DNA of 64,000 nucleotides from a virus. Positions 7,005 through 27,165 of the stretch are shown here, in pieces. The notes under the pieces were generated by a model that was not told the DNA's origin, made no database searches, and saw nothing but the letters and a program-made list of their open reading frames with translations. The stretch lies in the IMG/VR virus record IMGVR_UViG_3300032309_001546, positions 81,920 through 145,919 of that record. The stretch is one strand, 5' to 3'. A program made the position numbers and the translations under genes. Position 1 is the first letter of the stretch. Every line of letters starts with the position of its first letter.

Positions 7005-7319
7005 TTAGCCCTCCACTCGATAGAATGCACCTGCATTAGGTGCGTGAATCTGAATAGCGCGATAACCTGGATGAAGCGGCTTACCCGTTGCATCCTTCTT
7101 GTGTCGCTTTAGAAATAGAGGAAGGTTCTTGAAGCCCAAGGTGAATCCCTCGGCACCAATCTCCCCATTGCTCCATACCTCGATATCATCACCACCCATC
7201 TTGCAACGAGTAACGACGAAGCTACCAGCCTCTGTACGAACTCGTGCTACAGTAGGAACTGCAGGGTTAGATGAACCAACTCGAATCACACCACTCGCGG
7301 TCAAAACATCACTCATCAT
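7005..7319 (-). CDS. hypothetical protein
   Basis: Start moved to ATG 7319 (GAGG RBS); the longer track ORF runs through the tRNA. Confidence 0.65.
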   Translation of the reverse strand: MMSDVLTASGVIRVGSSNPAVPTVARVRTEAGSFVVTRCKMGGDDIEVWSNGEIGAEGFTLGFKNLPLFLKRHKKDATGKPLHPGYRAIQIHAPNAGAFYRVEG

Positions 7320-7364
7320 ATACCTCTCATGTTGTACTCTAGAATATAGAGCGTTTGGGGAAAG

Positions 7365-7439
7365 TGTGCCCGACTGGACTTGAACCAGTGACCTACGGCT
7401 TAGAAGGCCGTTGCAACTATCCAACTGTGCTACGGGCAC
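7365..7439 (-). tRNA. tRNA-Arg (anticodon UCU), no encoded CCA
   Basis: GTGCCCG/CGGGCAC acceptor, D arm, ACGGC-CTTCTAA-GCCGT anticodon arm, ACTGG-TTCAAGT-CCAGT T arm. Confidence 0.93.
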
Positions 7440-7467: not shown

Positions 7468-7962
7468 TTAGAAGCCGTCTCCATCCTCGAAGACAAAGTT
7501 GTCAGCAGGATTTCCGGCAGTCTGACGACGACGCACAGTAGTACGAGCCACAGCACGGACTGCAGGAGTTGCCACAGGACCAGCCGCCTTCATCTGCTGA
7601 GGAGCTGGAGTAGAAGCAGGTGCTGCTTCCTTGGTTGGCCGGCGACCATAGTTGATCTCATTCGCGACAACTTCAGTGATGTAGCGGGTCTCACCCTTGC
7701 TCTCATACTGACGAGTCTTGATTCGACCCTCGATCTCGGCCTCACTACCCTTTGACAGGTACTTGGCAGCATTCTCTGCAGCCTTACCCCACACAACAAC
7801 ACGATGCCACTCCGGCTCACTGACCGTCTCTCCCGCCTTATTTACGTACTCGTAATTAGTGCAGATAGACAAAGTAGCCCGGCTACGGCCAGTTTCAGTC
7901 GTAGACAACTTGGGATCATCACCAAGGAAACCACGAAGCTCAACACGATTCTTATTACGCAT
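7468..7962 (-). CDS. ssb: single-stranded DNA-binding protein
   Basis: NRVELRGFLGDDP...EWHRVVVWGKAAENAAKYLSKGS..EIEGRIKTRQY; acidic-aromatic tail (EDGDGF). Confidence 0.95.
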   Translation of the reverse strand: MRNKNRVELRGFLGDDPKLSTTETGRSRATLSICTNYEYVNKAGETVSEPEWHRVVVWGKAAENAAKYLSKGSEAEIEGRIKTRQYESKGETRYITEVVANEINYGRRPTKEAAPASTPAPQQMKAAGPVATPAVRAVARTTVRRRQTAGNPADNFVFEDGDGF

Positions 7963-12445: not shown

Positions 12446-12925
12446 CTAGTCCCAGTCGCCAGCAACAGGGGCGGACTTGCGGGCGGCAGGCTTGGCGGCG
12501 GGCTTGGCAGGCCTCGCGGGAGCCTTGGCAGCGGGCTTGGCGGGTGCCTTGGCGGGCTCCTCGACAACACCGTGACGACGCATAAGCGCCTTCTCGGTGG
12601 CCAAGAGACGAATCTGGGCCTTGCTGTACACGATGAGCCTGGTGGCGTTGTGCCAGGCCTTGTCATCGCTCTGCCAGGACTCCGTCTCGAGGCCTGCCCC
12701 GTCGATGTGCACGAAATTGTACCCGCTCTCGTCCGCCTTTGCGACGAACCAGTTCACGAGCTCCTGGCCGACCAGACGCACCCGCGTCCAGTTGGTGTCC
12801 TCCGTCCCGTAGGACGAACTGACCGAGAAGTCCGCGTACTTTCCGCTGGCCCCGATCACGGGCTGCTTGCCCATGTAGCCGAAGCCCGAGACCTTGAGGG
12901 TGAGAAACTTGCGATTCTGTTCCAT
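12446..12925 (-). CDS. divergent SSB-like OB-fold protein
   Basis: TNWTRVRLVG and LETESWQ match the SSB pattern; AKPA linker; acidic-aromatic tail GDWD; GGAG RBS. Confidence 0.65.
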   Translation of the reverse strand: MEQNRKFLTLKVSGFGYMGKQPVIGASGKYADFSVSSSYGTEDTNWTRVRLVGQELVNWFVAKADESGYNFVHIDGAGLETESWQSDDKAWHNATRLIVYSKAQIRLLATEKALMRRHGVVEEPAKAPAKPAAKAPARPAKPAAKPAARKSAPVAGDWD

Positions 12926-12969
12926 TGACGTTCTCCGTGGTAAGTGAGCCAAAGGCGGCTCATCATGAA

Positions 12970-13140: not shown

Positions 13141-13211
13141 GGCGAGGACTCGGCGCAGCCCAGCGGAGTATCTGGACTTTTTTACGACTATTTGTACTAT
13201 TTTTGTATTAT

Positions 13212-13238
13212 AGAAAGAATAGCCCATTGCTGGGCTAC
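13212..13238 (-). terminator. intrinsic terminator of the giant ORF
   Basis: TAGCCCA-GCAA-TGGGCTA then TTCTTTC. Confidence 0.8.
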
Positions 13239-13250
13239 TCAATCTAATGG

Positions 13251-16200
13251 CTACTTCTTACCCGTGATACGGTTAAGACGTGCCGCGACACCGGCCTTCT
13301 TCTCCGAGGGAGCAGGGGCGGGCTTCTCTTCAGCCTCAACCTCGGCGTCGAAGTCATTGGGATCGATGAAGATAATCTTCAGGCCCGACTCTTCAGCGTA
13401 ATCAACCGCATTCTTTGTACCGCCAGTGCTGCCATCCCAGACAGCAATGACGATATCGGCGCAGTCAATCATCTGCATGTTACGGCGCTGCATGCAGAAC
13501 TTGTCTTCGCCATAGGTCTTCTCGCTGACCTGGACGACTTCGCTGGCAACTTCCAGCATGTTCCAGTAGCGCTGCTTGGCTTCGCGGGGCCACATAGCCT
13601 CCTGCTCTACACAGGGGATCATGACCGTGAACGGGATACCCATCTCGTGCGCAATCTCTGCCGCATCCTGGTCAACGCCAAGGGCACCGCCAGTGATTAG
13701 CCAGAGCTTCTCACCGTGCTTGGCAAGACCACGCTCAAGCTGAGCCGCAATCTGTTCACGTACCCAGATGCGCTTCTCCGCATTGGGATTGTATCCGCCG
13801 ATCTTGTCGGGACGGTGACCAGTGAAGGCCACAAAGAAGTACTCCGTCTCTTCGGCTTCAACTTCCTCAGTTGCAGCCGCGATCTTAACCTTGAAGGGAT
13901 CGACATACAGCATACCGGGCTTGTAGTCTGCATACCCTTCGGGGCGGTTGTTGTGGGTAGACTTCGCGCCCGCAGGAGGATTCGGCAGAGTGCTGACATC
14001 CCGCTTCTGGATGTAAAGCATTACTCCATCAAGTCGGGCTTCGTCATACCAGGCTTGAGGGCCCTTCTGGCGGATCTGCCACTCGCTAAGGTCAACGCTA
14101 TCAGCATCAAACTCGATGTAGGGGCCATGGTCCCCGTACACAATGCGTGCGTACTCGGTTGCAATAATGCTTCCATTCGGGGTTTGGATTTCCCCATCAA
14201 AGCCCTGACCATCCTCACGGAGTCCGAGTTTGGCTTCGACTTCACGCTTGTCGGCTTCGCGATTAGGCAAACCAAGCGTTGTGGACTTGAAGTCTTCGGA
14301 CTCTTCGTCTTCGGCAACAGGGCACACAGCGGCCATCGAGGGGCCATTGTCTTCGTATCTGGCTTCGCAGGTCGGGCAGAGACCGGCCACGAAATCCCCC
14401 TCGACTTTGCAGTCCTCACAGGCATTTGTGCAAATGCGGCAGCCAGCGCCCTCGCACACTTCGCACACAGATGTGGGGATGGACTCTTCTGCTTCTTCCT
14501 CAGTCTTGTTGGCAAGGCGCAGCAGGACGTCAGCGTGGCAGGCTTCGGGTGCACAATGGCAAATCAACGACTTGCCAGTAAGTTCTCCGAGGCTATCCAT
14601 GAGATTAACCTGTGCCTTCACCCAAGCCTCGTACTTGGCAATGACTTCCTCACGGTTGCCATCGCGGCCAAGGACGAAGGGATTACCCCACTTGCTGGGA
14701 CGGCCAACGTATACCGCACCGGAAGGAATATCCTTATCTGCCCGGTTGTAGACGGCAGGTGCAGCGTTAGCAACGACCGGAGCGCTAGCCTCAGTGGCTT
14801 CAGACTCTTCGTCTTCGCTGTCCACCCAGCAATCGGTGTAATCGAAGCGGTCGCTGCTCTTGGCCTTCTCGTCTTCCTCAAAGACCTCGGACTCTTCCTC
14901 TTCGTCACCGTACTGGCTAGGGTCGAAGTCCGGGTTCTCTTCACCGAAGTCCGGCTCTTCTGCATCTTCCGGCTCGGGCATCTCGTCAGCGTCCTCCGAG
15001 ATGTCATACTCGTGCGAGGGCTCATCCTCGTAACCCTCCTCGTACGTATCCTCTTCAGGCTCATCACCAGAGAAGACATCGTTGAGATCCTCTTCGCCTC
15101 CACCCTGAGGACCGTTGTCGTCGCCAAGGAAGGTGAGGATCAGGAAGCTGTTCAAGCCCTGAGGCGCGAACCTGGTGCCAACAGCCACGGTGCGACCCAT
15201 GACAGTTTTACCATTCTCGTCCTTGGTCTTGATGTCGGGGTTCCACTCGGTAACCCACTCACGCTCCACAAGCTCTGCCTTCACCGCAGTACCCGGGAAG
15301 ATCTCGATCAAGCGACGCAGGAAACCGAATGAGTCAGCAGCTTCAAGCGTGCTCATAGCGTTGAAGCTGTCGAGCTCAGCCTGCGCTTCTGCGATCTTTG
15401 TCTCGCTGGGCTTCTTGGCCTTCTTCAAGTCAGCCAGTGCGTGACGAAGCTCCTCACCCTTGTTCTTCCGACGAAGCTCGATCTGACGACCGATTTCGCT
15501 GACAGTCGCAAGCTGACCCTCAAAGCCATTGGCCTCTCGACCATCGCTGATGCGCACGCCGGGCAGGCTGAGAAGACCATCGATCCCCCAGCCAAGCTTC
15601 TCGCCGTCACCGCCGAAGCCACCGCAGTTCTTCTCACCACGGATGTAGGCGAGGAGAGCTTCTGCGTCCTGGCGTACCGTCGGGGTACCACCCTTGCCCA
15701 AGTAGAGAGCAAGCTGACGGGCTTCACCGAGGCTGTTATCGTCGAGGCCGTTGATTGCGGCAATGCCATTGCTGGACATCCAGTCCGTGAGGTATTCCCA
15801 GGGACCGCCGACGAAGAACGCAGTGGTAGCGATACCGCCATTCGCCTTAAGGTTGCCATTGGCATCCTCGGTGATGGTGATCTCAAGAGCCTGTGGCTTC
15901 GCATCCTTGCCGACCTTCTTGGCCTTCTCAGCAGGCTGCAGGTAACGATTGGCAAAGGCAAGCCAGGCCATCTTCACAGCAGCGTCGCGGTCTTCAGCCT
16001 CAAAGTTCTTGAGGATGTACGACTCGATCTGGGAGTCTACGAGTTCAATCGCCGCTCTGATGGGCATCGCCGAGTAGGCCAGCCAGAGTGCCTTCTTGGC
16101 ACGCGAGATGTTGCCGCCAGCCAGCATTGCACTGACGACCCTGTAACGACGGTTGCTCTCGTGGCCTGCAGGAGCCATGATCTTGTGGATCAGTTCCTGG

Positions 16201-19200
16201 TTGGTCCAAGCCTGGAGGTTCTTGAAGCTACCGGGGCTCCAGTTCCAGTAGAGCCAGGCCTCGGTCTCTTCGCCAGGGGCCTCGTCTTCCGTGCGACCAA
16301 GCCAAGCAGTGAGCGTCTGGTGCAGGACGTTCTGGCGACCAGCTTCCCACTGAGCATTGGCGAGGGATTCGACCTCATCGATGCACCACTGGCGGTAGTC
16401 AGCCCAGAGGGTGTAGACCTTCGAGCTAAGCTCACCAGCGACGAGGTGGGTAACGATCTCGCCTTCTTCGTTGCGGACGGGAGCGGTCACCTTCGTGCCA
16501 TTCTCGAACAGGGGCTGCATGTCTTCACCGAGGACAGCAACACGCTTGGCCGGGTCGACGAACAAGCTCTTCGCACCAAGGCTGAGCTTCCGCAGAACGG
16601 CAGGCACGAATGCCCAACCTTCACGGCCCTTGCCTTCGGTGACAAGGTCAAGCCAGACCTGGTAGACCTGCACCATCCGGTAGGATGCCCAGGCTTCAGC
16701 GTAACCCGTCATCTTGACCGCTGCGTCAACGATGTCGGACAACGTCACGCCGAAGAGGAGCGTCTCGGAGATCTCCTCACGAAGCTCCTCGAGGAAGGTA
16801 GGCAGCTTCACCCAGCCAACAGCCAGGGACATGCCGTAGATCTTCGCGTTAGCGACGATACCAATCGCCTTCTGGAAGACGTTCTCCTCCATGTTCATCA
16901 CCGACTCGTACAAGCTCTCGTGGCTCATACCAGCAGTGGTGGCTTCGACCGGCGCTTCGGGCTCCGTAACGGCGGTAATGACGAAGTTCTCCGTCTTCAC
17001 CTTGAAAGCCTGACCGAGGATCGTGGCCGCGTTGAGGCGGGTCCACAGGCTCTTGTTCTCCGGGATACCGGCGACCATCTTAGCACGGAGCGCGTTCTTC
17101 TGTGCACGCTTCTCGGCGTTGAGCTTCGCCTTATCAGCAAGAGCGGTACGCCAGGCCAGACCCTTCACGATGAGCATGGCAAGCTTACCACGCGCAGTGG
17201 GGCAGCGGTCATCATAGTCCATGCCTTCGTTTGCCTGGAGCAGGAGGACTACCGTGTCTCCGCTCGCCGTGGTGAACATGATCACCATACGGCCGCTTAC
17301 GCCGATGATGAAGATATTCAGGCTTTCCGGCAGCTCACGGATCTCCGCAACCGTGCCCGACGTTTCGCCGGTGGGGTTACGGAAGAAGATTGCCAGGTTG
17401 GGCGCGCAGTTGTTCTTCGCCCAGCGAGCAAAGTTGGTGCAGTAGACAATAAGACGACCATCAGCCGTCTTCGTCTCCAGCTCCATGGTCTGCTTCGCCT
17501 TCGTAGCAACCTCCTCAGAGTGCTGCCCTTCAGCAATCCAAGCCGCATGCAGCATCGGCCAGAGGACCGGGATGGGGTAGGTTGCCCACAAGTCGCTTCC
17601 CTCCTCGGTAACAGGAGCGATCTTCATCGAGCCAGGCTCAATGTTCTTGCTCAAGGTGCCAACCAGCTGCTGTGCCAGCATGCGGAAGGGGAGAACAGGG
17701 ATTCGCATCGCGCCGAGGAGCTTCGCAAGAACGCTGTTGCGGTTGTCCTCGACCTTGGCCTCTTCGTCGCCAGCAACGAAGTCGTCAGCATCCTCGTCCA
17801 GACCCTTCAGGAAGTCGGGGAGACGCTTCTTGGCGTAGGCGATGTAGCCAGCAATGAGCTGGTAGAACTCCTTCGAGTTGACCTCAGCTCCGAGAAGCAT
17901 AAGGATCGACTGAAGCGACATAACCGCCTTCTCCTTCGTGAGCGCCGCAGTGCCGGGGATCCAGCAAAGGGCATAGTCGTTCTGGGTAGCGGACCACTCG
18001 GTCTTCACCTCACTGGCAATGATGCAGACGCCTTCAGGGAAGTACCGAGCCGGAAGCGGGATGCACATACCCTTGATCAGACCTTCGCTGGTCAAGATAC
18101 GAGCCACCATCGGAGCGGTCAGACCCATGGCCTTCGCCACGTCGGCACGGACAAGCACAAGGCCGTCGAAGAACTTGACCAGTGCAGCGGCAATCTTGCC
18201 CAGGTCCAGGACCTTACCCGGCAGGACAACGCGGGCAGTAACCCGCGAGATCCAGTACGAGTCAGCATACTTAGCAATGCGGCCCAGGGTCTTACCCTTG
18301 AACCGCAGAGCCGCCATGCTGACCTTCTTGGCTTCGGGCGTGCAGTAGAGGGTCATACCCTTCTGCAGAACCCGAATGGTGACAAGGCCAAGCTTCTTAG
18401 CGTTGGCCACGGCATCGGTATCGTCGTCAGCGACAACGAGACCTTCGAGGAGTCCAGGGCTATCGTCAGCCGCAGGACTAGTAGCACACGCCTCCTCAAG
18501 GAAGGCTGCGAACGTGCCGGGAGTGCATACCCGGACTTTCTTGTTACCCATCTTGTTCTCCTTAGGGGTGGGTGCCCCGGTGTGCTTCGTCGAGGCCAGG
18601 ATGATTCCCGGCTTAACGGAAGCTTTGGTGTCGTTGTTGGTGCTGGTGGCTTCACCGTTTAGGTCATTGTTGACCTCGGCAAAGATATCCTCGCAAGCCG
18701 CCATAAGACGAGCTGCGATGGCTGAGATGGCGTCGCTGGGGATGCCGGCATAGAGGCGGTCATAGCCACCTCTCATGGTCAACTCGGTACCGTCCGCCTG
18801 GCAGACATTGCAGAATTGGCCCTTTGAGCCAAATCCTGCAACACCGCAACCGACGCAGGTCTCGGGCCCGCAGTCGGCTTCGCTGGGCTTAGCCTTAACC
18901 ATGGCCTCGAGCTTCGTCGCAAGGGCATTGCCCACTACAACGAACAGGATACCGACGATGCCGACGACAAACAGAAAGCCGGGTCCTGCAAGGAACTCGG
19001 CCGGGCTCTTAGCCCAAGCGGCTTCGACCGCCTGGCTGAACGTGGGTGCTGCAGCGGCGAGTACGGCGATAAGCGGGGAGCTGGCCTTCACCGCATTGCG
19101 GCGTTGGCGGCTCAGTTCCCGCTTTCTGGTGCGCTTCTGGGCATCCTCAGTCGCCGTCATGGCGAAGAAGACGCTTGCGGTATCCTGTGCGGACTTGCCC

Positions 19201-20048
19201 GTGTTACCACAGACAGCGGCTTCGATGCGCTTGGCAAGGGTGGTCTTGATGACCACAATCTTAGCGCCGATAGCTACGGGCTTCACAGGAGTAACCTGCT
19301 TGGCCTTTGCCGCCGCGATGTGCGCCGAGAAGGTCATGGCCTTCGTGACGCGGGGGAATTTCGCGACGGGCTTCGCAGCAGCCTTAGCGACGGGCTTCGC
19401 AACGGGCTTGGAGGCAGCCTTGGGAGCAGGCTTTACAGCGGGCTCAGCGACGGCTTCCACTGCCACTTCCGTGACAGCAGCAACCTCGATGGCAGGGGCA
19501 GGGGCAGGCTTCACAGGAGCCTTAGCGACAGGCTTGGCAATTGCCTTCGGAGCGGGCTTGGCGACAGCCTTGGGGATATGGACCCCCTTCGACCGCAGCC
19601 AGCGGTCAAGGCGGATAGTGGTCCAGCAGTTACGCCGGGCCAAACGGGCTGCATGGCGGGTAAGCGCCTGCAGCCTGAGCGACGCCGCCGACTGGGCAGC
19701 AACAGTCCGCCGAAGCGGAAGGACGATGGCGTATACGTTCGCCAGAAAACGGGCCACGAAGGCCAAGATGACACGGACCATGGGATGGTCCTTACCCTCC
19801 GCGAGGAGGATTGGGGTGGTCGGCTTCACCGAATTGGCAAAGCGGACCACGAGGGAAGCGGGGATGCGGGGAGCGATGCGGGTTGCAGCCTCCGTGACCA
19901 GCACGAAGCTGGTGACGAAGAAGCTGACTAGGGCAGCGGCCTGCTGCGAAAGGGTGGGGGCCAGCTGGGCCTCCACGGTCAGCGCCGTTGCGAAAACGGC
20001 GAACACCACAGCCACGATGGCGGTGATGGCGAGTTGGATCCGAGACAT
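13251..20048 (-). CDS. 2265-aa multidomain protein: membrane N-terminus, putative two-barrel (YonO/QDE-1-like) RNA polymerase core, acidic linker, DUF4326, Zn ribbons, unknown YADYK domain, YspA/SLOG (DUF1273)
   Basis: Ordered motifs FDG..., R...G.IKG, FFRNP, GMDYDD, IGIVAN, IVDAAVKMTG; YVGRPSKWGNPF...CHCAPEACHADVL; FTGHRP...GGALGVD...RN..MID...AVWDGS.GGT; AGGAGG RBS. Confidence 0.75.
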   Translation of the reverse strand: MSRIQLAITAIVAVVFAVFATALTVEAQLAPTLSQQAAALVSFFVTSFVLVTEAATRIAPRIPASLVVRFANSVKPTTPILLAEGKDHPMVRVILAFVARFLANVYAIVLPLRRTVAAQSAASLRLQALTRHAARLARRNCWTTIRLDRWLRSKGVHIPKAVAKPAPKAIAKPVAKAPVKPAPAPAIEVAAVTEVAVEAVAEPAVKPAPKAASKPVAKPVAKAAAKPVAKFPRVTKAMTFSAHIAAAKAKQVTPVKPVAIGAKIVVIKTTLAKRIEAAVCGNTGKSAQDTASVFFAMTATEDAQKRTRKRELSRQRRNAVKASSPLIAVLAAAAPTFSQAVEAAWAKSPAEFLAGPGFLFVVGIVGILFVVVGNALATKLEAMVKAKPSEADCGPETCVGCGVAGFGSKGQFCNVCQADGTELTMRGGYDRLYAGIPSDAISAIAARLMAACEDIFAEVNNDLNGEATSTNNDTKASVKPGIILASTKHTGAPTPKENKMGNKKVRVCTPGTFAAFLEEACATSPAADDSPGLLEGLVVADDDTDAVANAKKLGLVTIRVLQKGMTLYCTPEAKKVSMAALRFKGKTLGRIAKYADSYWISRVTARVVLPGKVLDLGKIAAALVKFFDGLVLVRADVAKAMGLTAPMVARILTSEGLIKGMCIPLPARYFPEGVCIIASEVKTEWSATQNDYALCWIPGTAALTKEKAVMSLQSILMLLGAEVNSKEFYQLIAGYIAYAKKRLPDFLKGLDEDADDFVAGDEEAKVEDNRNSVLAKLLGAMRIPVLPFRMLAQQLVGTLSKNIEPGSMKIAPVTEEGSDLWATYPIPVLWPMLHAAWIAEGQHSEEVATKAKQTMELETKTADGRLIVYCTNFARWAKNNCAPNLAIFFRNPTGETSGTVAEIRELPESLNIFIIGVSGRMVIMFTTASGDTVVLLLQANEGMDYDDRCPTARGKLAMLIVKGLAWRTALADKAKLNAEKRAQKNALRAKMVAGIPENKSLWTRLNAATILGQAFKVKTENFVITAVTEPEAPVEATTAGMSHESLYESVMNMEENVFQKAIGIVANAKIYGMSLAVGWVKLPTFLEELREEISETLLFGVTLSDIVDAAVKMTGYAEAWASYRMVQVYQVWLDLVTEGKGREGWAFVPAVLRKLSLGAKSLFVDPAKRVAVLGEDMQPLFENGTKVTAPVRNEEGEIVTHLVAGELSSKVYTLWADYRQWCIDEVESLANAQWEAGRQNVLHQTLTAWLGRTEDEAPGEETEAWLYWNWSPGSFKNLQAWTNQELIHKIMAPAGHESNRRYRVVSAMLAGGNISRAKKALWLAYSAMPIRAAIELVDSQIESYILKNFEAEDRDAAVKMAWLAFANRYLQPAEKAKKVGKDAKPQALEITITEDANGNLKANGGIATTAFFVGGPWEYLTDWMSSNGIAAINGLDDNSLGEARQLALYLGKGGTPTVRQDAEALLAYIRGEKNCGGFGGDGEKLGWGIDGLLSLPGVRISDGREANGFEGQLATVSEIGRQIELRRKNKGEELRHALADLKKAKKPSETKIAEAQAELDSFNAMSTLEAADSFGFLRRLIEIFPGTAVKAELVEREWVTEWNPDIKTKDENGKTVMGRTVAVGTRFAPQGLNSFLILTFLGDDNGPQGGGEEDLNDVFSGDEPEEDTYEEGYEDEPSHEYDISEDADEMPEPEDAEEPDFGEENPDFDPSQYGDEEEESEVFEEDEKAKSSDRFDYTDCWVDSEDEESEATEASAPVVANAAPAVYNRADKDIPSGAVYVGRPSKWGNPFVLGRDGNREEVIAKYEAWVKAQVNLMDSLGELTGKSLICHCAPEACHADVLLRLANKTEEEAEESIPTSVCEVCEGAGCRICTNACEDCKVEGDFVAGLCPTCEARYEDNGPSMAAVCPVAEDEESEDFKSTTLGLPNREADKREVEAKLGLREDGQGFDGEIQTPNGSIIATEYARIVYGDHGPYIEFDADSVDLSEWQIRQKGPQAWYDEARLDGVMLYIQKRDVSTLPNPPAGAKSTHNNRPEGYADYKPGMLYVDPFKVKIAAATEEVEAEETEYFFVAFTGHRPDKIGGYNPNAEKRIWVREQIAAQLERGLAKHGEKLWLITGGALGVDQDAAEIAHEMGIPFTVMIPCVEQEAMWPREAKQRYWNMLEVASEVVQVSEKTYGEDKFCMQRRNMQMIDCADIVIAVWDGSTGGTKNAVDYAEESGLKIIFIDPNDFDAEVEAEEKPAPAPSEKKAGVAARLNRITGKK

Positions 20049-20292
20049 GAGTTACCTCCTAGTCAACGGGGTCCAGCGCGATCTATAGGGAAGCATTCCC
20101 TATGACCGACATACCAGTGTCTTGTAACACACTGGAAGATTTCTGGTCCTTTATGGGAAGGACCCTGTTTAAAACCCTGGCTTTCTGTTCGCTCCGGCAT
20201 TGACCCATACTACCTTCTTGGAAGATACTGGGGTGCCATTCGAACTATCCGGCCCATTGCGACCACCCCTTAGCAGAGAGCTGGTCCACATT

Positions 20293-20323
20293 TTAGCCCA
20301 TAGTAGTGCAACTATTTAAGTAT
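20293..20323 (-). promoter_or_regulatory. class-A repeated motif (TACTTAAATAGT-N0-11-ATGRGYTAA) upstream of the polymerase gene
   Basis: Same motif precedes every unit from 20.3 to 27.1 kb. Confidence 0.7.
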
Positions 20324-20339
20324 CGTACAAAAAATACCC

Positions 20340-21893
20340 TTCCTGGGAAGTTCATTAAAACACTTACACACCCAGTGTGCAGTTTGCTCAACGCATAAAT
20401 TACTAGTCTGATACTTGTTAACAGACCAGCGATCTATACGCCGTGAACCCATCCAGGGACGCCAGGAGCCTTGCCTCCGTCCTGGGATTAGCTTCGCACA
20501 TTAGCATGACATAAAGCGTTTTATCCCTTAAAGGATTCTTGCGCTGCAGTCTTCTTCTCCCACTACATTACTAGACTAGAGGTTCAATGGGCCTCTATGC
20601 TAGGGATCTTGCCGCCGAATTGCGCGAGAAGATATAACCATCCTACTCCTTTTGAGAGCAAGAGCATCTAGTAATTACCTGACCTATGTGTAGTTATCTA
20701 TGGGCAAACAGATCCTAACAAGAACTGAACCTCTGGCAGCGGTTTCTTGTTAGTTTAGGCGTACAAGCGCCTATCCCCTCTTATACGTGCATGCCTGGCA
20801 GTCATCACATACTAATTGGGGGCTGATCTTTTGCTTGCATAGTGATTTGGGTTCTTCTTACCAGTAAGAGCGGCGCTACTCGCTAAAACCAGTATATAGG
20901 GTGTTTATAACCCAATCCAAATGCAAACGGCTCCTCGGTATTTCAACCGAATCACAGCCTTCTACAAGTGTCAAGTGTGGGAGTCAAAGACACAGCATCC
21001 TTCTTGGGACGCTTTGTGTCATACTTCTGTTACGAAGCTAAAGCAACGAATCTCACCATCTCACAGACCAGGTCCTGTCTACACAGTAATCAACTGTATA
21101 GCGGTTATCTGATCTGTCCTCGTTGATTCCTCGTTATCTCTGCAGAAGGGCTACCGCTTAAAGTAGAAATCCTCCTGGATAACTTGGTCCACCGGCCACA
21201 CCTGCTAGAGTGCGCCTACTCTGTCTCACGACAGTTGGGGAATTATGCAGCATTTACTCTGTAAAAACAGGGAAAGGGTTCAGCACTTGCCGCCTTGCTT
21301 AAGGGCGGGAGTTTGCCTATCACGAGATCTGCTTGTGTCGGTTTTGCGGGGTGTTTTTGTTGAGGTTCCCCTTTTGCCTCCTTTTTTAAAGTCCGTACTC
21401 TCTTTCGAGGACAACAGACTTAGTGCGCGTAATCAACGCTTGGGAAAGTTAAAACCCATATAGTCATCTTTGGTGAGGGATGACGCCCTACTGCCGACAG
21501 GCAGACCCCTAAAATCTCTATTAGCCATACTTGACATCCACACCACCGACATATTAGGAGCTTTCGCCCCCGGAAGAACTGTTCCTCCTTGGTGTTTCAG
21601 TCTGTGTTGCAGGCCGTACGAGATCTTAGGTTGACAGTTTTTCTGCTACCGACTTTTAGGGATTGCTCCCTCCGCCGGATTTATGCAGGAACACAGTTTT
21701 GGCTGTTAGCCTAGCTGCTTATACTGTCCTCGTGTCCTCTCCGACCATCCACCTTTGGGCATGGCCAGATACTGCACAAGTCAACGAACCGGTAAGATTC
21801 GTTGCTTATTTTTTATGGGGCGTTAACTACGTGCAAAACCTTGCCAACGCTGATCCCCACATATGGTCACTCCATATGTTTAAGACTCCACTG
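20340..21893 (-). ncRNA. candidate giant (~1.55 kb) structured ncRNA
   Basis: No minus-strand ORF of 60 aa or more; two class-A motifs upstream; dense hairpins with GNRA loops on the minus strand. Confidence 0.6.
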
Positions 21894-22080
21894 TTTAGCC
21901 CATAGTATTCTTTTGACGACTATTTTTGGACTATTTGAGTAAAGTAAAACAATTTAACCCATAACTATACAACTCTTTGAGTATTAGAGAAAAAATAGCC
22001 CTTAACGCGGGCTAGACGTGCTTTTCTGTTCCCAAGAAGCAACTCTCGGATGGGCACCACCCCATCAGGCACCTCCCGTT

Positions 22081-22368
22081 TCAGGGAGACGGGCACTCCC
22101 CATCTTTGAGGTGACGCTTGCTGCGCACACAGCCGTATTCGGCCATGCGAGCCTCCACCTTGCGAAGGTGAAGAGTGTCACCCCAAACCGAGATGTAGGG
22201 TTTATTAGCCAAAGCTCCGAGAAGCCGGCCAATTCCCCACATCACGTCGGAAGCCTCGTCCTTGAGTTCTTCAAGGTTTTTAACCTCGAAAAGCTCTACT
22301 GCCTCTTCGGCAATATGGACGATAGCAACCCGGATGGGAAGCACCTCAAGACATTTACAGAAATGCAT
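22081..22368 (-). CDS. possible MazG-like all-alpha NTP pyrophosphohydrolase
   Basis: EEAVEL...EELKDEASDV resembles EExxE...ExxD; AGGAG RBS. Confidence 0.5.
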   Translation of the reverse strand: MHFCKCLEVLPIRVAIVHIAEEAVELFEVKNLEELKDEASDVMWGIGRLLGALANKPYISVWGDTLHLRKVEARMAEYGCVRSKRHLKDGECPSP

Positions 22369-22526
22369 CTGTAGACTCCTTGTGGTAATGCTGTATGCAG
22401 TACAGCGCTGTGAGTAAAAGGATCTTTACTTCACTGTTTAGCCCAGACTAGTGTACTATTTAAGTATGTTTCAAAGAATGACCCATCTTGCGATGGGTCA
22501 CTCAGTGATGTCTCTCTTCCCTTTCT

Positions 22527-22889
22527 CTACTTCCGCCAGGCCCCAGTACGAGCCTCGACCACAGTCTTGAGGTTGCAGTAGAGGTTGCCCACCGCATAGC
22601 GGCAGGGGGTAGCGGTGGTCAGCCAGTCCTCGTTGGACTGAAGGTCGGGACCCTTGGCCATGGCCAGAGAGTAGCGAGCTTCCTCTGACAACTGGCATTT
22701 GGCCAGAGTCTTGCGGTGCACCGAGACCTTGACGGTGTCGATCTCGCCGCTGAAAGAAGCCGCCACGTGGTTCCAGCCGATGGCCTTGAGGGCCTCGACG
22801 ATCTCCGTCTTGTAGACCGAGACGGGAAGGGTGGGGGGGAAGGAGATAAGGAGCGCGCTATCCGTCACATCATTGATCTTCTTGCACAT
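22527..22889 (-). CDS. cassette hypothetical protein
   Basis: GGAGG RBS before ATG 22889. Confidence 0.75.
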   Translation of the reverse strand: MCKKINDVTDSALLISFPPTLPVSVYKTEIVEALKAIGWNHVAASFSGEIDTVKVSVHRKTLAKCQLSEEARYSLAMAKGPDLQSNEDWLTTATPCRYAVGNLYCNLKTVVEARTGAWRK

Positions 22890-23034
22890 GGTTTCCTCCA
22901 TTGGAAAGGCGGTGTGGCGCACCGTGGCAGGGGGTAGAATCTGCCATCTTCTAGTTCATAGTAGGACTATTTAAGTACTATAGATTACTTACCCCACCTT
23001 GCAGTGGGGCTTTCATCTACCTCAACCTCAGCTC

Positions 23035-23181
23035 TTAGTCCTGCATGCAGCTCCACGAGATGCCGATCCAGGACAGGATCAGAAGACCCGCGCAGACCGG
23101 CTCCATCACGCCAGAGCCAAAGCTCCAGCCGAGGGTGCAGGTTGCGAGGAGGAAGCTGGCGGTAGCGATTGCATTCTTCAT
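23035..23181 (-). CDS. cassette small two-TM peptide
   Basis: 48 aa, hydrophobic, GGAG RBS, fills a cassette slot. Confidence 0.65.
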   Translation of the reverse strand: MKNAIATASFLLATCTLGWSFGSGVMEPVCAGLLILSWIGISWSCMQD

Positions 23182-23325
23182 GACATTCTCCAGTTTGGCA
23201 TCATTCTTTACGAAGTGTAAAGCTATGTATGCCCACAGCCTAGCCCATACTACTATTTGTGTATCCTAGAAAAGATAGCCCACCTCCTCAGGGTGAGCCA
23301 TCCTATCTATCCTCAATCGCTCTAG

Positions 23326-23505
23326 TTACTCGCTGCGGTCAGCAAGCCAACCACCACGACGCACCGACTGGCGGCACGCGAGGCAGTCACAGCCCCAAAG
23401 GGCGTCGGCGATGTCGCTTTCCCAGGCAAACTCCTCTTCCTCCGTGAGGAGGACGATGAGCTCGATCTGAAACAGGGCGAGGATCTTGACAAGAATCTTG
23501 TCCAT
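23326..23505 (-). CDS. cassette small protein (CxCxxC)
   Basis: AAGGAG RBS before ATG 23505. Confidence 0.7.
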   Translation of the reverse strand: MDKILVKILALFQIELIVLLTEEEEFAWESDIADALWGCDCLACRQSVRRGGWLADRSE

Positions 23506-23630
23506 GGCTAACTCCTTTACGAGTGGGGACGACATTATCCCAAAGCTGGCCAAAGATTAACTCATAGCAGTACAACTATTTATGTATTGTCGATTACTTA
23601 CCCCTTACGGGGCTTTCGTCGGGTTGCTCT

Positions 23631-23891
23631 CTACTTGTCGCCGCATACCGGGAGTGGCGTGCCGTTAGGCACGTCACTCATCGGGTGTGGGTGAGTCGCA
23701 GAGAAGTCTACAATCCACCACCGCCAACGGGTTTCCCCGCTAAGGCTGCAGTCGATCTCAACAAGCTCGTCCTCAACGCAGTACCCAGCAACCTTCGGCT
23801 CGATCGTACCGGTGGTCGGCACGGGGAGCGTGTTGTTGCTGGAGCAAGCGGTGAGGAGCGAGGCAAGCAACGCGATCTTCAACTTATCCAT
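23631..23891 (-). CDS. cassette lipoprotein
   Basis: MDKLKIALLASLLTA-C lipobox; AAGGAG RBS. Confidence 0.75.
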   Translation of the reverse strand: MDKLKIALLASLLTACSSNNTLPVPTTGTIEPKVAGYCVEDELVEIDCSLSGETRWRWWIVDFSATHPHPMSDVPNGTPLPVCGDK

Positions 23892-24015
23892 GAGATCTCC
23901 TTTCGGTTTGGGTGACATTACCCATCTCACCGTTTAGCCCATAGGACTGTTTAAGTATTGTTCAAAGAATAGCCCGCCTAAGCGAGCCACTCGATGATGC
24001 AGTCTACCTCATCCT

Positions 24016-24216
24016 CTAGTCATCGAATCCATACTGCCAAAACAGCGAGGACACGATGGCCATGCCGATCAGCACGATCGTTGCGAACGTGCCGAGAGCG
24101 TTGAACAGGTTCTCGGGGCCGGCGACCCGAAGCCAGTTGTCCATGAGGCAACCAGCGAAGAACATATTCAAGAGGTGAACGAAGACGCGGACAATGTTCC
24201 AGAGAACCTTAACCAT
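24016..24216 (-). CDS. cassette two-TM membrane protein
   Basis: AAGGAG RBS; two hydrophobic helices. Confidence 0.7.
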   Translation of the reverse strand: MVKVLWNIVRVFVHLLNMFFAGCLMDNWLRVAGPENLFNALGTFATIVLIGMAIVSSLFWQYGFDD

Positions 24217-24357
24217 GACAGACTCCTTTCTAGTAATATTCCCCAACGAAATGCGGGGCTATATCACCACACTTTAACCCACACTACTTGAACTATTTAA
24301 GTACAGTAGAAAAGATAGCCCACCTTGCGGTGAGCCAGAGCTTCCCTGATTGTGGAC

Positions 24358-24648
24358 CTAAGGCTTGTTAGCCAAGTGGTCCGTGATGGCCTTGCTGTTG
24401 CCCTGCGAAGGGCAGCACCCAAACTCGCGGAACCAGTAGTCCCGCTTGTTATGCCACTTCTTCTTGGCGGCCTTCTTCCGAGCCTCGCTTGCCTTTTTAC
24501 GGGCAGCACGGACAGAGGCGCGAATCTTGCGAGCCTGCTGACGAGTTTCCTCGTCAACAAGCCCGCAGAACAGGATCATGAAACCCGTTCCTGCACCCCC
24601 GAGAAGAATGACGGCGAAAATCAATCGCAACCACATCATCGAGTCCAT
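24358..24648 (-). CDS. cassette membrane-anchored basic protein
   Basis: AGGAGG RBS; TM helix then K/R/A-rich helix. Confidence 0.75.
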   Translation of the reverse strand: MDSMMWLRLIFAVILLGGAGTGFMILFCGLVDEETRQQARKIRASVRAARKKASEARKKAAKKKWHNKRDYWFREFGCCPSQGNSKAITDHLANKP

Positions 24649-24806
24649 AACAAACCTCCTTTACGTTAGGTTAGCGCTCTGCGAATCTGCAGTTTACGCC
24701 ATGTCATGTCACCTTCTAAGTCATACTATTTAAGTATCTTAGAAAAAATGACCCGTCCAAAGACGGGCCATGTTCCCTTGCCCACCCTAAGGTGAGCCGT
24801 TGCTCT

Positions 24807-25049
24807 TTACCTGAACGGAACGTACAGGTAGAGAGCGCGACGATTGAACCCAGTCGCCTTGTGGATGCTCGCGAAGAGCCGGTATTCCGGGGGCGAGCTG
24901 GTCATGGCGCTGTAAACGCCACGTGCGACCTGGTAGCCGCATCTGCTCCCGCGGTTCTCGAAGGCAGTCCAGGCCGCAGCCTGAGACAGCCAGTCGAGAA
25001 GACGATCCTCCTCTGTCTTGGGGGTCGTCTCGTTGGTGTTGTTGCTCAT
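24807..25049 (-). CDS. cassette hypothetical protein
   Basis: AGGAGG RBS before ATG 25049. Confidence 0.7.
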   Translation of the reverse strand: MSNNTNETTPKTEEDRLLDWLSQAAAWTAFENRGSRCGYQVARGVYSAMTSSPPEYRLFASIHKATGFNRRALYLYVPFR

Positions 25050-25204
25050 TTTATCCTCCTTGAAGGTTGCAGTGTGGCGCACTGGGCAGGGGGTAGAATC
25101 TGCCATATATTAACTCATAGCAGAACTCTGTAAGTATTAGAGAAGAAATACCCCACCCTAGCATAAGCCAAAGTGGGGCAATCCTCTAGTCCATCAACCA
25201 GTTA

Positions 25205-25432
25205 TTACCAGTTGAAATCCTGCTCAACATGATGGAGCACCTCAGTGCCAAACACGCTGAACCGAATCAACAGTCGAAGGCGCACAGGGGTGCCACCCTC
25301 GATGCCGTGGTGCTGCAGCCCAAAGGCCACAAGATTCTTCCACCCACGGCCGGGGTGGGGAGTGGTGTCAATGACAACACCGTTCACCATGGTCTCAACC
25401 TCAAGCAACTGCATCTCGGTCGTGATCATCAT
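25205..25432 (-). CDS. cassette hypothetical protein
   Basis: GGAGG RBS before ATG 25432. Confidence 0.7.
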   Translation of the reverse strand: MMITTEMQLLEVETMVNGVVIDTTPHPGRGWKNLVAFGLQHHGIEGGTPVRLRLLIRFSVFGTEVLHHVEQDFNW

Positions 25433-25632
25433 CTTATCCTCCATTGAAAAGGAAGGGAATTTCACCCCACCCGAGAACACTCTCAGGATTTGAAGTTCAT
25501 AGAAAATTTGAACCTCCACACTTTAGCTCATACTATTTAAGTATATAAGAAAAGATGGCCCATCCTCTCGGACAGGCCACCTAAGCTAATACAAGCTGAC
25601 TCAAGGGCTCAAAGGATCAAGCTCTCAATCAA

Positions 25633-25833
25633 TCAATGCCAGGGATTACGCCCAGCAGGATTGAAGAAGCCGCGACGGGCGCACTCACGCTTGATCTCCT
25701 CGCGCCTCTCTTCCATATCCCGGCAGTAGCTGTTGCCCCAGCCGTACTGGCTGTGGAAACGGACATCATCCGCGAGAAGGTTGACGGAAATGAGGGAATT
25801 GCAGTTCCGAATCTCAATCTTCAACTTATCCAT
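25633..25833 (-). CDS. cassette hypothetical protein
   Basis: GGAGG RBS before ATG 25833. Confidence 0.7.
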   Translation of the reverse strand: MDKLKIEIRNCNSLISVNLLADDVRFHSQYGWGNSYCRDMEERREEIKRECARRGFFNPAGRNPWH

Positions 25834-25973
25834 GGCAAACCTCCAGGTTGAAATCACTCCTATGAAATATAGGTAGTGTGCCAAATGTTAACTCATAGTA
25901 GTACTCTGTTAGTATGTTAGAAAAGATAGCCCCCGAAGGGGCCAGAGCTTGACCAGAGCGTGAGCTCTAGTTA

Positions 25974-26237
25974 CTACTTGTACATCGCCTTAATGAAGGC
26001 GTTCTCGATGGCGCGAACCAGCTGCCAGCTCGCGTTCATCTCCTTGTCCAGGTCCCAGGAGGAACCGTCCTTGGCCTCGATGTCCTTGAGGCGGGAGATC
26101 TCGACCTTGATCGTGCTAAGCGTGTTCCGAAGCTCCTCATGGGAACCCTCTTTGATACCGTTGTTGTCAACAGAATCATTGAAGGTTGCCCAGCAGGTCT
26201 CCGCAATCTCGCTCATCTGGATCATGCTCTTGTTCAT
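25974..26237 (-). CDS. cassette hypothetical helical protein
   Basis: GGAGG RBS before ATG 26237. Confidence 0.7.
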   Translation of the reverse strand: MNKSMIQMSEIAETCWATFNDSVDNNGIKEGSHEELRNTLSTIKVEISRLKDIEAKDGSSWDLDKEMNASWQLVRAIENAFIKAMYK

Positions 26238-26394
26238 CTTATCCTCCGTTGGTTGGAAGGGAATTTCACCCTGCCCGAGACAATTCCCAGGACTTGAAGC
26301 TAGTAAGATTACCAACTCCCACATGTTAACCCATAATACTATTTGAGTATCTTAGAAAAGATAGCTCGCCATTACAGCGAGCCAGAGCTAATCT

Positions 26395-26751
26395 CTAACG
26401 CCAGTTGTGAACAATGCTGAACCAGGGTTGAACCAGGTCAGCCGGAAGCTCCTTGTGGAGCTTATCCGTGATTTCCCTCCACTCCAGCATGTGCTGGTAG
26501 CGGATAGAGGACGGGATCTCACGGTTGTAGCCGTGGAACCCCTCAAACCAAGCGACGAACACCTGGATATCCTCTGCAGTAGCCTTGCGAGCCTGATCCC
26601 TAATCTCCTCAAGGGAGACCTGGGCAGCAGACTTGACGGCAGGAGCAACGTTGACAGTCTTGACGCTCTCCTTCCCGAAGGGGAAGAAAAGAGTAACAAG
26701 GCCGACGACGAAGCAAAGAGCCATCAAAGCGACAAGAATAACGTTCAACAT
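26395..26751 (-). CDS. cassette membrane-anchored protein
   Basis: AGGAGG RBS; N-terminal TM helix. Confidence 0.75.
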   Translation of the reverse strand: MLNVILVALMALCFVVGLVTLFFPFGKESVKTVNVAPAVKSAAQVSLEEIRDQARKATAEDIQVFVAWFEGFHGYNREIPSSIRYQHMLEWREITDKLHKELPADLVQPWFSIVHNWR

Positions 26752-26870
26752 GGCAAACCTCCTGGTTGAAATCGTTCCTATGAATTATAGGTAACGTGCC
26801 ACAAGTTAAGTCATACTATTTGTGTATGTAAGAAAGAATGACCCACCTTGCGATGGGTCACTCAATCAGG

Positions 26871-27062
26871 CTACAGAGAGAAGTATCTCTGTGACCACAC
26901 GACGGACAGGCTGTTCCACGTACCCCAGGTCAGGGTGCTATGGCGGGTGTGCTTGTCCATGCTGCGGTCGATGACATCAAGCTCCTTGCGGGAGACTGCC
27001 GAAGCAATCTCTTGAAGGAACTTCTTTGCCAGGTACTCATTAGACGCGACATTGATTCTCAT
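26871..27062 (-). CDS. cassette hypothetical protein
   Basis: GGAG RBS. Confidence 0.7.
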   Translation of the reverse strand: MRINVASNEYLAKKFLQEIASAVSRKELDVIDRSMDKHTRHSTLTWGTWNSLSVVWSQRYFSL

Positions 27063-27165
27063 TGTCTATCTCCATGAAGGGTGAAATTACCCACATACTA
27101 TCCCATACTATTTAAGTATAGGAGAAAAAATGACCCATCTCTCGATAGGTCATTGATCCTAGTAC

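Follow-up and report, generated by a model that had tools for sequence, protein, structure and literature searches.

The subject of this report is a giant gene in a 64,000-nucleotide stretch of viral DNA, positions 81,920 to 145,919 of the IMG/VR record IMGVR_UViG_3300032309_001546 (hereafter the window; coordinates are counted from its first letter). The window is the final 64 kb of the 145,919-bp record, which has a CheckV completeness of 84%, and freshwater and lake metagenomes are the main sources of near-identical DNA. Terminase, portal, major head protein and tail sheath are encoded on the plus strand from 28 kb onward, which marks the uncultured virus as a contractile-tailed phage (myovirus). 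The block between ~6 and 28 kb lies on the minus strand and forms a 21-kb early module of small genes. Within it, and outside the structural genes, stands one uninterrupted open reading frame (ORF) of 2,265 codons (13251-20048, minus strand; GC 59%, GC content at third codon positions (GC3) 0.70). Close relatives of its product, P0001, are 65-95% identical across most of the protein length. The middle of P0001 very probably adopts the fold of a single-chain two-barrel RNA polymerase (RNAP), with a shortened metal-binding loop that is shared by its whole family, and the most likely role of the protein is that of an early-module transcriptase of the phage.

The limits of this central part were set by family conservation, by a structural model and by fold matches:

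16239-18386, minus strand: putative two-barrel polymerase core, residues 555-1270

An HMMER search with residues 520-1400 against 1.84 billion representative proteins, read exhaustively, returned only 20 relatives of the core, 12 of them below E 1e-30. They are 760-3,499 residues long and share the segment at residues ~560-1267; stand-alone forms of ~1,100 residues, free of any helicase or HIRAN domain, are common among them. The family alignment holds 20 representatives, which are 19-35% identical to the query except for a single close relative at 93%. Across the whole of P0001, Pfam finds DUF4326 and YpsA/SLOG only, with no PF05183 at E≤1, and neither Pfam nor PHROGs has a match within residues 1-1750. 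None of the 20 cores matches PF05183 or any other RNAP model at E≤5. The core has no tblastn match among 50,697 GenBank phages; phmmer and profile searches against PDB sequences gave chance matches only, none of them a polymerase; and a word-index homologue search with the family profile recovered close relatives only. Scans with exact peptide patterns recovered, from IMG/VR, three contigs that belong to one subgroup but no contig for the query or for a further subgroup. Neither of two such scans, over 185,579 prokaryotic species genomes, recovered a relative; since the patterns were few, this is weak evidence that cellular genomes lack the family. The family is rare and a sequence orphan, whose core annotation tools do not recognise.

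The fold was approached through prediction. AlphaFold2, run on residues 555-1270 with the 20-sequence family alignment, gave a model with a predicted local distance difference test score (pLDDT) of 86.3 and a predicted template-modelling score (pTM) of 0.83; a run from the single sequence (residues 560-1340) reached a pLDDT of 34.8 and an unusable model. Foldseek placed QDE-1, P32 gp64, P74 gp62, phi14:2 gp66, RDR2 and P23-45 gp96 at the top of the PDB matches, followed by isolated double-psi beta-barrels (DPBBs), with a probability of 1.0 for QDE-1 and P32 gp64 and of 0.98-1.0 for crAss gp66. By VIA-align, maize RDR2 scored Z 13.4 (402 residues, 4.0 Å), QDE-1 12.5 (461 residues), P74 gp62 10.3 (these first three each over 400-460 residues), gp96 7.7 and gp66 6.5 (465 residues), and Pol I, II and III reached Z ~6 with their beta-prime-type barrel. 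A second, independent structural run compared the model with 48,161 PDB representative chains without a prefilter. Its only matches at Z≥8 were RDR2 (13.4, 402 residues), QDE-1 (11.4, 458 residues) and P74 gp62 (10.1). Model residues 255-401 align with Rpb1 342-493 (86 residues, 2.7 Å, Z 6.5) and also with isolated or designed DPBB domains. In a shape search of the ESM Atlas, two clusters named 'putative RNA-dependent RNA polymerase', one from a phage and one from Bacillota with PF05183, matched with a template-modelling (TM) score of 0.58. BFVD and the Atlas both point, at 10-13% identity, to uncharacterised proteins of phages that are 'RdRP'-like or crAss-like. PolD, the archaeal two-barrel DNA polymerase, is not among the best 50 matches of either VIA list.

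The model thus contains the two DPBB domains that characterise the superfamily, in which they form the active-site cleft, and here both lie in a single chain; we have little doubt that the core has the single-chain two-barrel RNAP fold. This agrees with the original prediction, made from the DNA letters, of a divergent single-chain two-barrel RNAP at 16000-18551. Two outcomes had been named as refuting that prediction, a model devoid of DPBBs and Asp residues that vary among homologues; both were checked, and neither was seen. That span holds the motifs on which the prediction was built, but it covers only the central third of the gene. The six motifs are all present, in the predicted order and in one minus-strand frame:

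18150-18173, minus strand: FFDGLVLV, residues 626-633
18069-18101, minus strand: RILTSEGLIKG, residues 650-660
17373-17387, minus strand: FFRNP, residues 888-892
17205-17231, minus strand: NEGMDYDDR, residues 940-948
16848-16865, minus strand: IGIVAN, residues 1062-1067
16704-16733, minus strand: IVDAAVKMTG, residues 1106-1115

Their cores coincide with invariant columns of the 20-sequence alignment, so the motifs are not chance occurrences. The invariant columns are D628, G629, K659, G660, P671, Q713, R890, P892, G942, D944, D946, D947, A1066, S1104, D1108, A1109 and A1119; K682 is conserved in at least 90% of the sequences, and E680 is also nearly invariant.

Structures of QDE-1 complexes define four catalytic aspartates and further contacts (PMC9508822), and these provide a map onto which the core can be laid. 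Residues were equated by their order and spacing and by the overall superposition of the structures, rather than by superposing them one by one. The elements concerned are the following:

17952-18242, minus strand: DPBB1 (beta-like), residues ~603-699 (model strands 49-143), carrying D628-G629, K659-G660, E680 and K682; D628 would correspond to QDE-1 D709, the DPBB1 Asp (cation B), and K659 and K682 to K743 and K767, the DPBB1 Lys residues that touch product and nucleoside triphosphate (NTP)
17184-17624, minus strand: DPBB2 (beta-prime-like), residues ~809-955, from the alignment of the model to Rpb1 and DPBB domains
17373-17381, minus strand: R-x-P Pro-Gate loop R890-N-P892, Arg and Pro invariant, putative counterpart of QDE-1 R962-S-P964
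17208-17225, minus strand: metal-binding loop G942-M-D944-Y-D946-D947 (GxDxDD), putative counterpart of QDE-1 G1005-x-D1007-x-D1009-x-D1011
17070-17189, minus strand: long helix that immediately follows the metal-binding loop, at the bridge-helix position, residues 954-993 (model helices 400-422 and 424-439), assigned by position only
16704-16730, minus strand: trigger-loop-like V1107-D1108-A-A-V-K1112-M-T-G, family consensus SDxVDAAxKGxGY, putative counterpart of QDE-1 V1115, D1116 and K1119

The beta-like barrel carries the two basic residues and the Asp that are expected of the superfamily (K659, K682 and D628). The steps from D628 to K659 and on to K682 are 31 and 23 residues, and those of QDE-1 from D709 to K743 to K767 are 34 and 24 (PMC9508822). 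In the model DPBB1 spans only ~97 residues, which would leave no room for an SBHM (sandwich-barrel hybrid motif) insert. QDE-1 R962 contacts two 2'-OH groups, one at the RNA 3' end and one on the incoming NTP, and the equivalent R-x-P Arg influences NTP selection in Pol II and Escherichia coli RNAP (PMC9508822). In the trigger loop, QDE-1 V1115, D1116 and K1119 contact the NTP base, 3'-OH and gamma-phosphate; the Asp is typical of the RNA-dependent RNA polymerase (RdRP) clade, and Pol II has Asn (PMC9508822). In the P0001 family S1104, D1108 and A1109 of this motif are invariant, and its Val and Gly nearly so.

The sole systematic departure from the QDE-1 map is the loss of the residue that separates the second Asp of the metal-binding loop from the third. 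A non-canonical DxDD active site had been predicted, and GxDxDD is indeed found in all 20 family sequences, where the next residue is R, I, C, E, A, S, N, L or K but never Asp. The three carboxylates are conserved throughout, and the third stands one position early relative to the DxDxD register, which makes the loop shorter by one residue than that of any described member. D944, D946 and D947 fall on the loop that matches Rpb1 D481, D483 and D485, as judged from the ends of the aligned ranges. Two reviews define the superfamily by DXDXD (PMC7824862; PMC10770324), and a full-text literature search found no paper connecting DxDD with an RNA polymerase. It is plausible that the DxDD loop is the functional equivalent of DxDxD. 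The catalytic elements of QDE-1 have invariant or near-invariant counterparts, in the same order and with similar spacing, across sequences that are only 19-35% identical to the query, which favours a working enzyme; the core is therefore judged likely to be an active two-barrel polymerase.

Two-barrel cores inside giant phage proteins are a known and growing kind. The best structural matches of P0001 are eukaryotic: QDE-1 of Neurospora (2J7N, 7Y7P-T) and RDR2 of maize and Arabidopsis (7W84, 7ROZ), at Z 11-13.4 over 400-465 residues. Like them, the core is a single chain with DPBB1 ahead of DPBB2, and it has putative counterparts of the DPBB1 Asp and Lys pair, the R-x-P loop, the G-x-D-x-D and the trigger-loop V-D...K with Asp instead of the Asn of Pol II. 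It differs in its 11-12% identity, its failure to match the Pfam family hidden Markov model PF05183, its DxDD in place of DxDGD, and a V-D-x-x-x-K where QDE-1 and RDR2 have V-D-x-x-K. P0001 is a phage protein of 2,265 residues with predicted membrane segments and a DUF4326-SLOG portion, and no QDE-1-type C-terminal tail or slab and head domains were identified in it. Motif parallels to QDE-1 had been noted in the original prediction, together with a likeness to the phage enzyme YonO. The motifs match the QDE-1 structure (PMC9508822), but membership of the YonO family by sequence was not shown: aligned by hhalign to the single YonO sequence, the family profile gave a probability of 0.07, with the KG motif as the only aligned stretch. 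YonO of SPbeta is a single-chain DNA-dependent RNAP of ~100 kDa from the same clade, without fusions (PMC5467207). SPbeta also encodes the YpsA-family protein YoqJ, and JGI puts the YoqJ name on relatives of P0001.

Among phage enzymes, the Thermus phage non-virion RNAP of the gp64 type (P23-45 gp64; P74 gp62 and P32 gp64; 8F5M, 8F72) matches at Z 10.3 and 9.9. P23-45 gp96 (8H2M; Z 7.7), a virion RNAP fused to a tape measure, is likewise a giant protein with membrane segments. The Thermus phage enzymes keep DxDxD (DFDGD in gp96) and are 12-14% identical to P0001; gp96 is the tape measure of a tail module, whereas P0001 lies among early-type small genes and lacks tape-measure features. The virion RNAP gp66 of phi14:2 (6VR4; ~2,180 residues) is, like P0001, a giant protein with an internal two-barrel core. 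Its structural match is weaker than those of the RdRPs, and many crAss-like proteins are among the BFVD matches. The gp66 loop is DFDID, still DxDxD. Packaging has been shown for gp66, which is encoded with virion genes, whereas the P0001 gene is outside the structural genes. Among giant phage proteins of this kind, P0001 stands out by its orphan family, shortened metal loop, different genomic position and new fusion partners.

Around the core, P0001 is a composite of other segments:

19713-20048, minus strand: hydrophobic N-terminal segments predicted to be membrane helices or a signal anchor, residues 1-30, 37-55 and 90-112
19356-19559, minus strand: Ala/Lys/Pro-rich low-complexity repeats in the translation, residues ~164-231
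18909-19001, minus strand: fourth hydrophobic segment, residues 350-380, maximum Kyte-Doolittle value 2.69
18801-18872, minus strand: zinc-ribbon-like cluster Cys-x4-Cys-x2-Cys ... Cys-x2-Cys, residues 393-416, read from the sequence
14520-14735, minus strand: DUF4326, residues 1772-1843 (Pfam PF14216, E 5.9e-24)
14367-14465, minus strand: Cys-rich segment with several CxxC pairs, residues 1862-1894, likewise read from the sequence
13848-14288, minus strand: unnamed 147-residue module, residues 1921-2067, with no Pfam match
13353-13832, minus strand: YpsA-type SLOG domain, residues 2073-2232 (Pfam PF06908, E 8.6e-17)

The hydrophobic segments were called as 19-residue Kyte-Doolittle windows above 1.8, and P0001 is probably membrane-anchored. 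Acidic linkers join the core to the C-terminal modules. A 12-nt periodic GC-rich repeat that encodes Ala/Lys/Pro-rich peptide is found both in the N-terminal region of P0001 (19345-19583) and in a small ORF two genes downstream (12446-12952).

DUF4326 belongs to a rhodanese-phosphatase clade that is often fused to SLOG and is predicted to process ADP-ribose-derived phosphates (PMC9503650). The 147-residue module stands just before SLOG in P0001 and just before HIRAN in the relative P0003, and is 71% identical between the two (P0003 residues 2457-2603). Their polymerase cores are only ~25% identical, which indicates that modules have been exchanged and suggests that this happened recently. Other family members carry HIRAN (P0003, P0015, P0016), a Pif1 helicase (P0011, P0012), DUF4326-SLOG (P0018) or a metallophosphatase (P0020). 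The fusion is absent from the related contig L003, where a separate YpsA-DUF4326 gene lies close by. In having several unrelated effector domains that are swapped among relatives, P0001 resembles the polyvalent proteins of phages and conjugative elements (Iyer et al. 2017, cited in PMC7824862), in which unrelated enzymatic domains share a giant chain. Polyvalent proteins are defined by delivery into the host with the DNA; the P0001 gene lies outside the structural module.

The early module itself has a composition of its own. GC3 is 0.65-0.82 in its genes and 0.27-0.33 in the terminase, portal, sheath and a 1,273-residue protein; the contrast is weaker in relatives (for the contig L004, 0.54 vs 0.47 overall GC). 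The GC-rich block was not put down to an assembly error in the metagenome, since the gene order recurs in independent contigs, where the giant gene stands beside a protein with a staphylococcal-nuclease-type domain and structural genes. In every related contig this nuclease-type protein, 1,150-1,330 residues long (window 29474-33295; L004 673-4662; L015 423-3899), adjoins the point where the structural module and the early module diverge.

Sixteen intergenic cassettes punctuate the module. They are on the minus strand only and, within the 146 kb, in the early block only (window 13193-27138). Each consists of a GC-rich hairpin and a T-run, which together resemble a terminator, then TAnnAT-ACTTAAATAGT and, 0-8 nt later, (C)TATGGGCTAAAnnTGTGG. 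The box is also written ATACTTAAATAGT...TATGGGCTAAA; the hairpin and T-run precede ATACTTAAATAGT and (C)TATGGGCTAAAnnTGTGG. The cassettes and the two copies that flank the giant gene are:

13193, 20308, 21969, 22452, 22963, 23249, 23572, 23943, minus strand: starts of cassette copies 1-8
24289, 24722, 25122, 25529, 25900, 26335, 26812, 27104, minus strand: starts of cassette copies 9-16
20286-20344, minus strand: promoter-like box ATACTTAAATAGT ... TATGGGCTAAAATGTGG, ~260 nt upstream of the giant gene, kept in L015
13193-13240, minus strand: intrinsic-terminator-like hairpin and T-run, then a box copy, directly after the giant-gene stop codon

A consensus scan found no sigma-70-type promoter on the minus strand of the block. 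In L015, a 77%-identical relative, cassettes and hairpins are retained at the same places. The cassettes are partly conserved in L003 (26% core identity), which has similar boxes, and L004 (~30% core identity, same gene order) has a different box, GGCCTCCTTCGTCGGCCGAAT, after its terminators. Boxes that differ between related phages fit a promoter for a phage enzyme better than a host consensus promoter.

A second element, on the plus (template) strand, is a mini-hairpin GGC-GA-GC-GCA-GC-GA-GCC, of the general form stem-GNA-GC-GCA-GC-GNA-stem:

12976, 13021, 13055, 13081, 13121, plus strand: clustered hairpins after the giant gene, with a degenerate GCGCAGC sixth site at 13153
8038, 11813, 12281, plus strand: single hairpin copies

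Four tandem mini-hairpins with the GC-GCA-GC element begin ~80 nt beyond the giant-gene stop codon, and L015 retains four hairpins (16154-16270). Read on the minus (RNA-sense) strand, the single copies have TTTCAT behind them and may also act as terminators. The module further holds a gene for a single-stranded DNA-binding protein (SSB):

7468-7962: SSB gene, in the early module

Three side observations concern the same block. Between 20340 and 21990, ~1.6 kb upstream of the giant gene, there is no minus-strand ORF of at least 50 residues amid otherwise dense coding. This gap has no Rfam match and is flanked by box copies, two of them in tandem at ~21890-21985. A tRNA gene lies within the early module (7365-7439, minus strand; Rfam 62.6 bits) and overlaps ORF 7005-7439 of the program-made list, so that this ORF is probably either shorter than listed or no true gene. 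Apart from this tRNA, the Rfam scan of 6-28 kb gave one sub-threshold match only.

Genes for replication and transcription lie elsewhere in the genome:

G000:C1 30323-40897, outside the window: replication and transcription cluster, with a DnaG-DnaB primase-helicase fusion (849 residues), a sigma-70 region-2 protein (368 residues), a metallophosphatase, and a split DnaE Pol III alpha (PHP and N-terminal part, 444 residues; remainder, 804 residues; a 106-residue ORF between them)

A class II ribonucleotide reductase is among the products of this genome as well. Searches for PolA and PolB found neither in the phage genome, which had made P0001 a candidate replicase; this idea was dropped when the split DnaE and the DnaG-DnaB fusion were found. 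A T7-like RNAP (PF00940) gave no match in the genome, an uninformative result since the control genomes gave none either. Two large proteins from the early/middle strand (657 and 755 residues) have no Pfam match.

Taken as a whole, the proposal is that P0001 is a giant, probably membrane-anchored, active two-barrel polymerase that serves as a DNA-templated transcriptase of the early module, and we lean towards it with somewhat better than even confidence. The gene, its family, the invariant residues, the fold and the surroundings in the genome are what the analysis shows; activity, RNA product, DNA template, promoter choice and membrane anchoring are what we infer. The core, residues 555-1270, would be an active nucleotide polymerase of the clade of QDE-1/RDR, Thermus-phage gp64 and crAss gp66. 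D944, D946 and D947 of the second barrel, with D628 of the first, would hold two Mg2+, and K659 and K682 would bind the NTP phosphates and the 3' end of the RNA. An RNA product is expected because the ribose hydroxyls would be read by R890 (R-x-P loop) and D1108 (trigger-loop motif). The enzyme would be a DNA-templated RNAP with which the phage transcribes part of its 21-kb early module, while the fused DUF4326-SLOG would act separately on nucleotide or ADP-ribose-derived host signals. The invariant Arg that would read the 2'-OH, and the fact that the phage encodes a replicase and a primase, favour an RNA polymerase over a DNA polymerase or an essential primase. The cassette architecture speaks for a part in the transcription of the phage, and so does the precedent of P23-45, which has phage-specific promoter motifs, a polymerase joined to a protein with membrane segments, and two phage RNAPs that act in a cascade, followed by host RNAP (PMC10770324).

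Several observations weigh against this proposal. With the TAnnAT-like hexamer at its start, each box could serve host RNAP as a -10-only promoter. Differences between boxes are out of step with the divergence of the polymerases (similar in L003 at 26% core identity, different in L004 at ~30%), and the boxes may therefore be read by something else. The giant gene itself bears an early-type box, so that the enzyme, if it reads the boxes, must arrive pre-made in the virion. The phage sigma factor implies that at least one class of genes is left to host RNAP. The partners in relatives (Pif1, HIRAN) and the neighbouring SSB genes have a flavour of replication and repair. The third Asp is displaced and, from the sequence, activity could be lost or changed. 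Finally, no RNA run is listed among the public runs that contain this DNA.

The main rival holds that the core is an RNA polymerase for replication initiation or priming, which would make primer RNA at single-stranded DNA hairpins such as the downstream cluster, together with phage SSBs, in a manner that resembles host RNAP priming at the M13 minus-strand origin. It draws on the fusions of the core to a Pif1-type 5'-3' DNA helicase and to HIRAN, a DNA 3'-end-binding domain, on the SSB genes found in the same module in every context examined, on the tandem GC-GCA-GC mini-hairpins past the stop codon with their conservation in L015, and on the acceptance of single-stranded DNA templates by QDE-1-type enzymes (PMC9508822). 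However, the phage already encodes a DnaG-type primase fused to a DnaB-like helicase as well as a DnaE replicase, the stand-alone forms common in the family lack helicase and HIRAN, and the hairpins may be mere terminators or regulatory sites. We consider this reading unlikely. The same hairpins could serve transcription instead: directly downstream of the giant gene and ahead of the 6-13 kb genes, they may be start sites at which a membrane-tethered DxDD enzyme, aided by SSB, initiates on template-strand GC-GCA-GC hairpins flanked by sheared G-A pairs. This idea is a long shot. If true, hairpin initiation would be the strategy of the N4 virion RNAP reinvented on an unrelated, cellular-type scaffold, and P0001 would be the middle enzyme of a three-step cascade of box promoters, hairpin promoters, and sigma factor with host RNAP.

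Another possibility is a counter-defence enzyme that copies RNA, or makes untemplated or decoy RNA, and works with DUF4326-SLOG as part of an injected or early anti-defence protein rather than as a phage transcriptase. The best structural matches, RDR2 and QDE-1, are cellular RdRPs, and the family has the trigger-loop Asp of the RdRP clade. DUF4326 and YpsA/SLOG are also fused or nearby in distant relatives (P0018; L003), and for these domains the literature predicts a part in virus-host conflicts, as processors of signals made of nucleotides or ADP-ribose (PMC9503650; PMC7824862). Yet QDE-1 is also DNA-dependent, and the characterised phage members of the clade, YonO, gp66, gp64 and gp96, are all DNA-dependent transcriptases (PMC5467207; PMC10770324). 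RNA-silencing partners are absent, and the differing fusion partners among relatives indicate that the C-terminal module is not obligatory. This reading is improbable. Less probable again is a dead or repurposed scaffold, in which DxDD has lost the catalytic metal and the core binds nucleic acid or plays a structural part within a giant protein of the virion or the membrane. The third Asp does leave an otherwise universal DxDxD register, and the core does sit in a giant protein with hydrophobic N-terminal helices, but the acidic triad, its Gly, the DPBB1 Asp, both Lys, the R-x-P and the V-D...K are invariant or nearly so in the 20 sequences, and such conservation at 19-35% identity is the pattern of an active site and not of a relic. 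A two-barrel DNA polymerase analogous to archaeal PolD is barely credible: PolD proves that the scaffold can make DNA (PMC4996933), and the helicase and HIRAN fusions hint at DNA metabolism, but the R-x-P Arg, the 2'-OH reader of QDE-1, and the trigger-loop Asp are invariant and the phage has its own DnaE polymerase.

All cellular transcription relies on two-barrel RNA polymerases, and the DxDD family offers a natural test of their active-site geometry and of how far a two-metal site can vary. Searches that look for the DxDxD motif overlook enzymes of this sort, and so do Pfam, PHROGs and PDB sequence profiles. The DUF4326-SLOG fusion and the exchange with HIRAN and Pif1 bear on the annotation of giant multidomain phage proteins. 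With 16 terminator-plus-box cassettes, SSBs and template-strand hairpins beside its polymerase, the locus would let promoter recognition by a single-chain two-barrel RNAP be studied in one system, and the stand-alone relatives of ~1,080 residues, such as P0004 with 1,081, are of a size convenient for biochemistry. The structural closeness of this phage family to the eukaryotic polymerases of RNA interference is a data point for the descent of the latter from phage enzymes.

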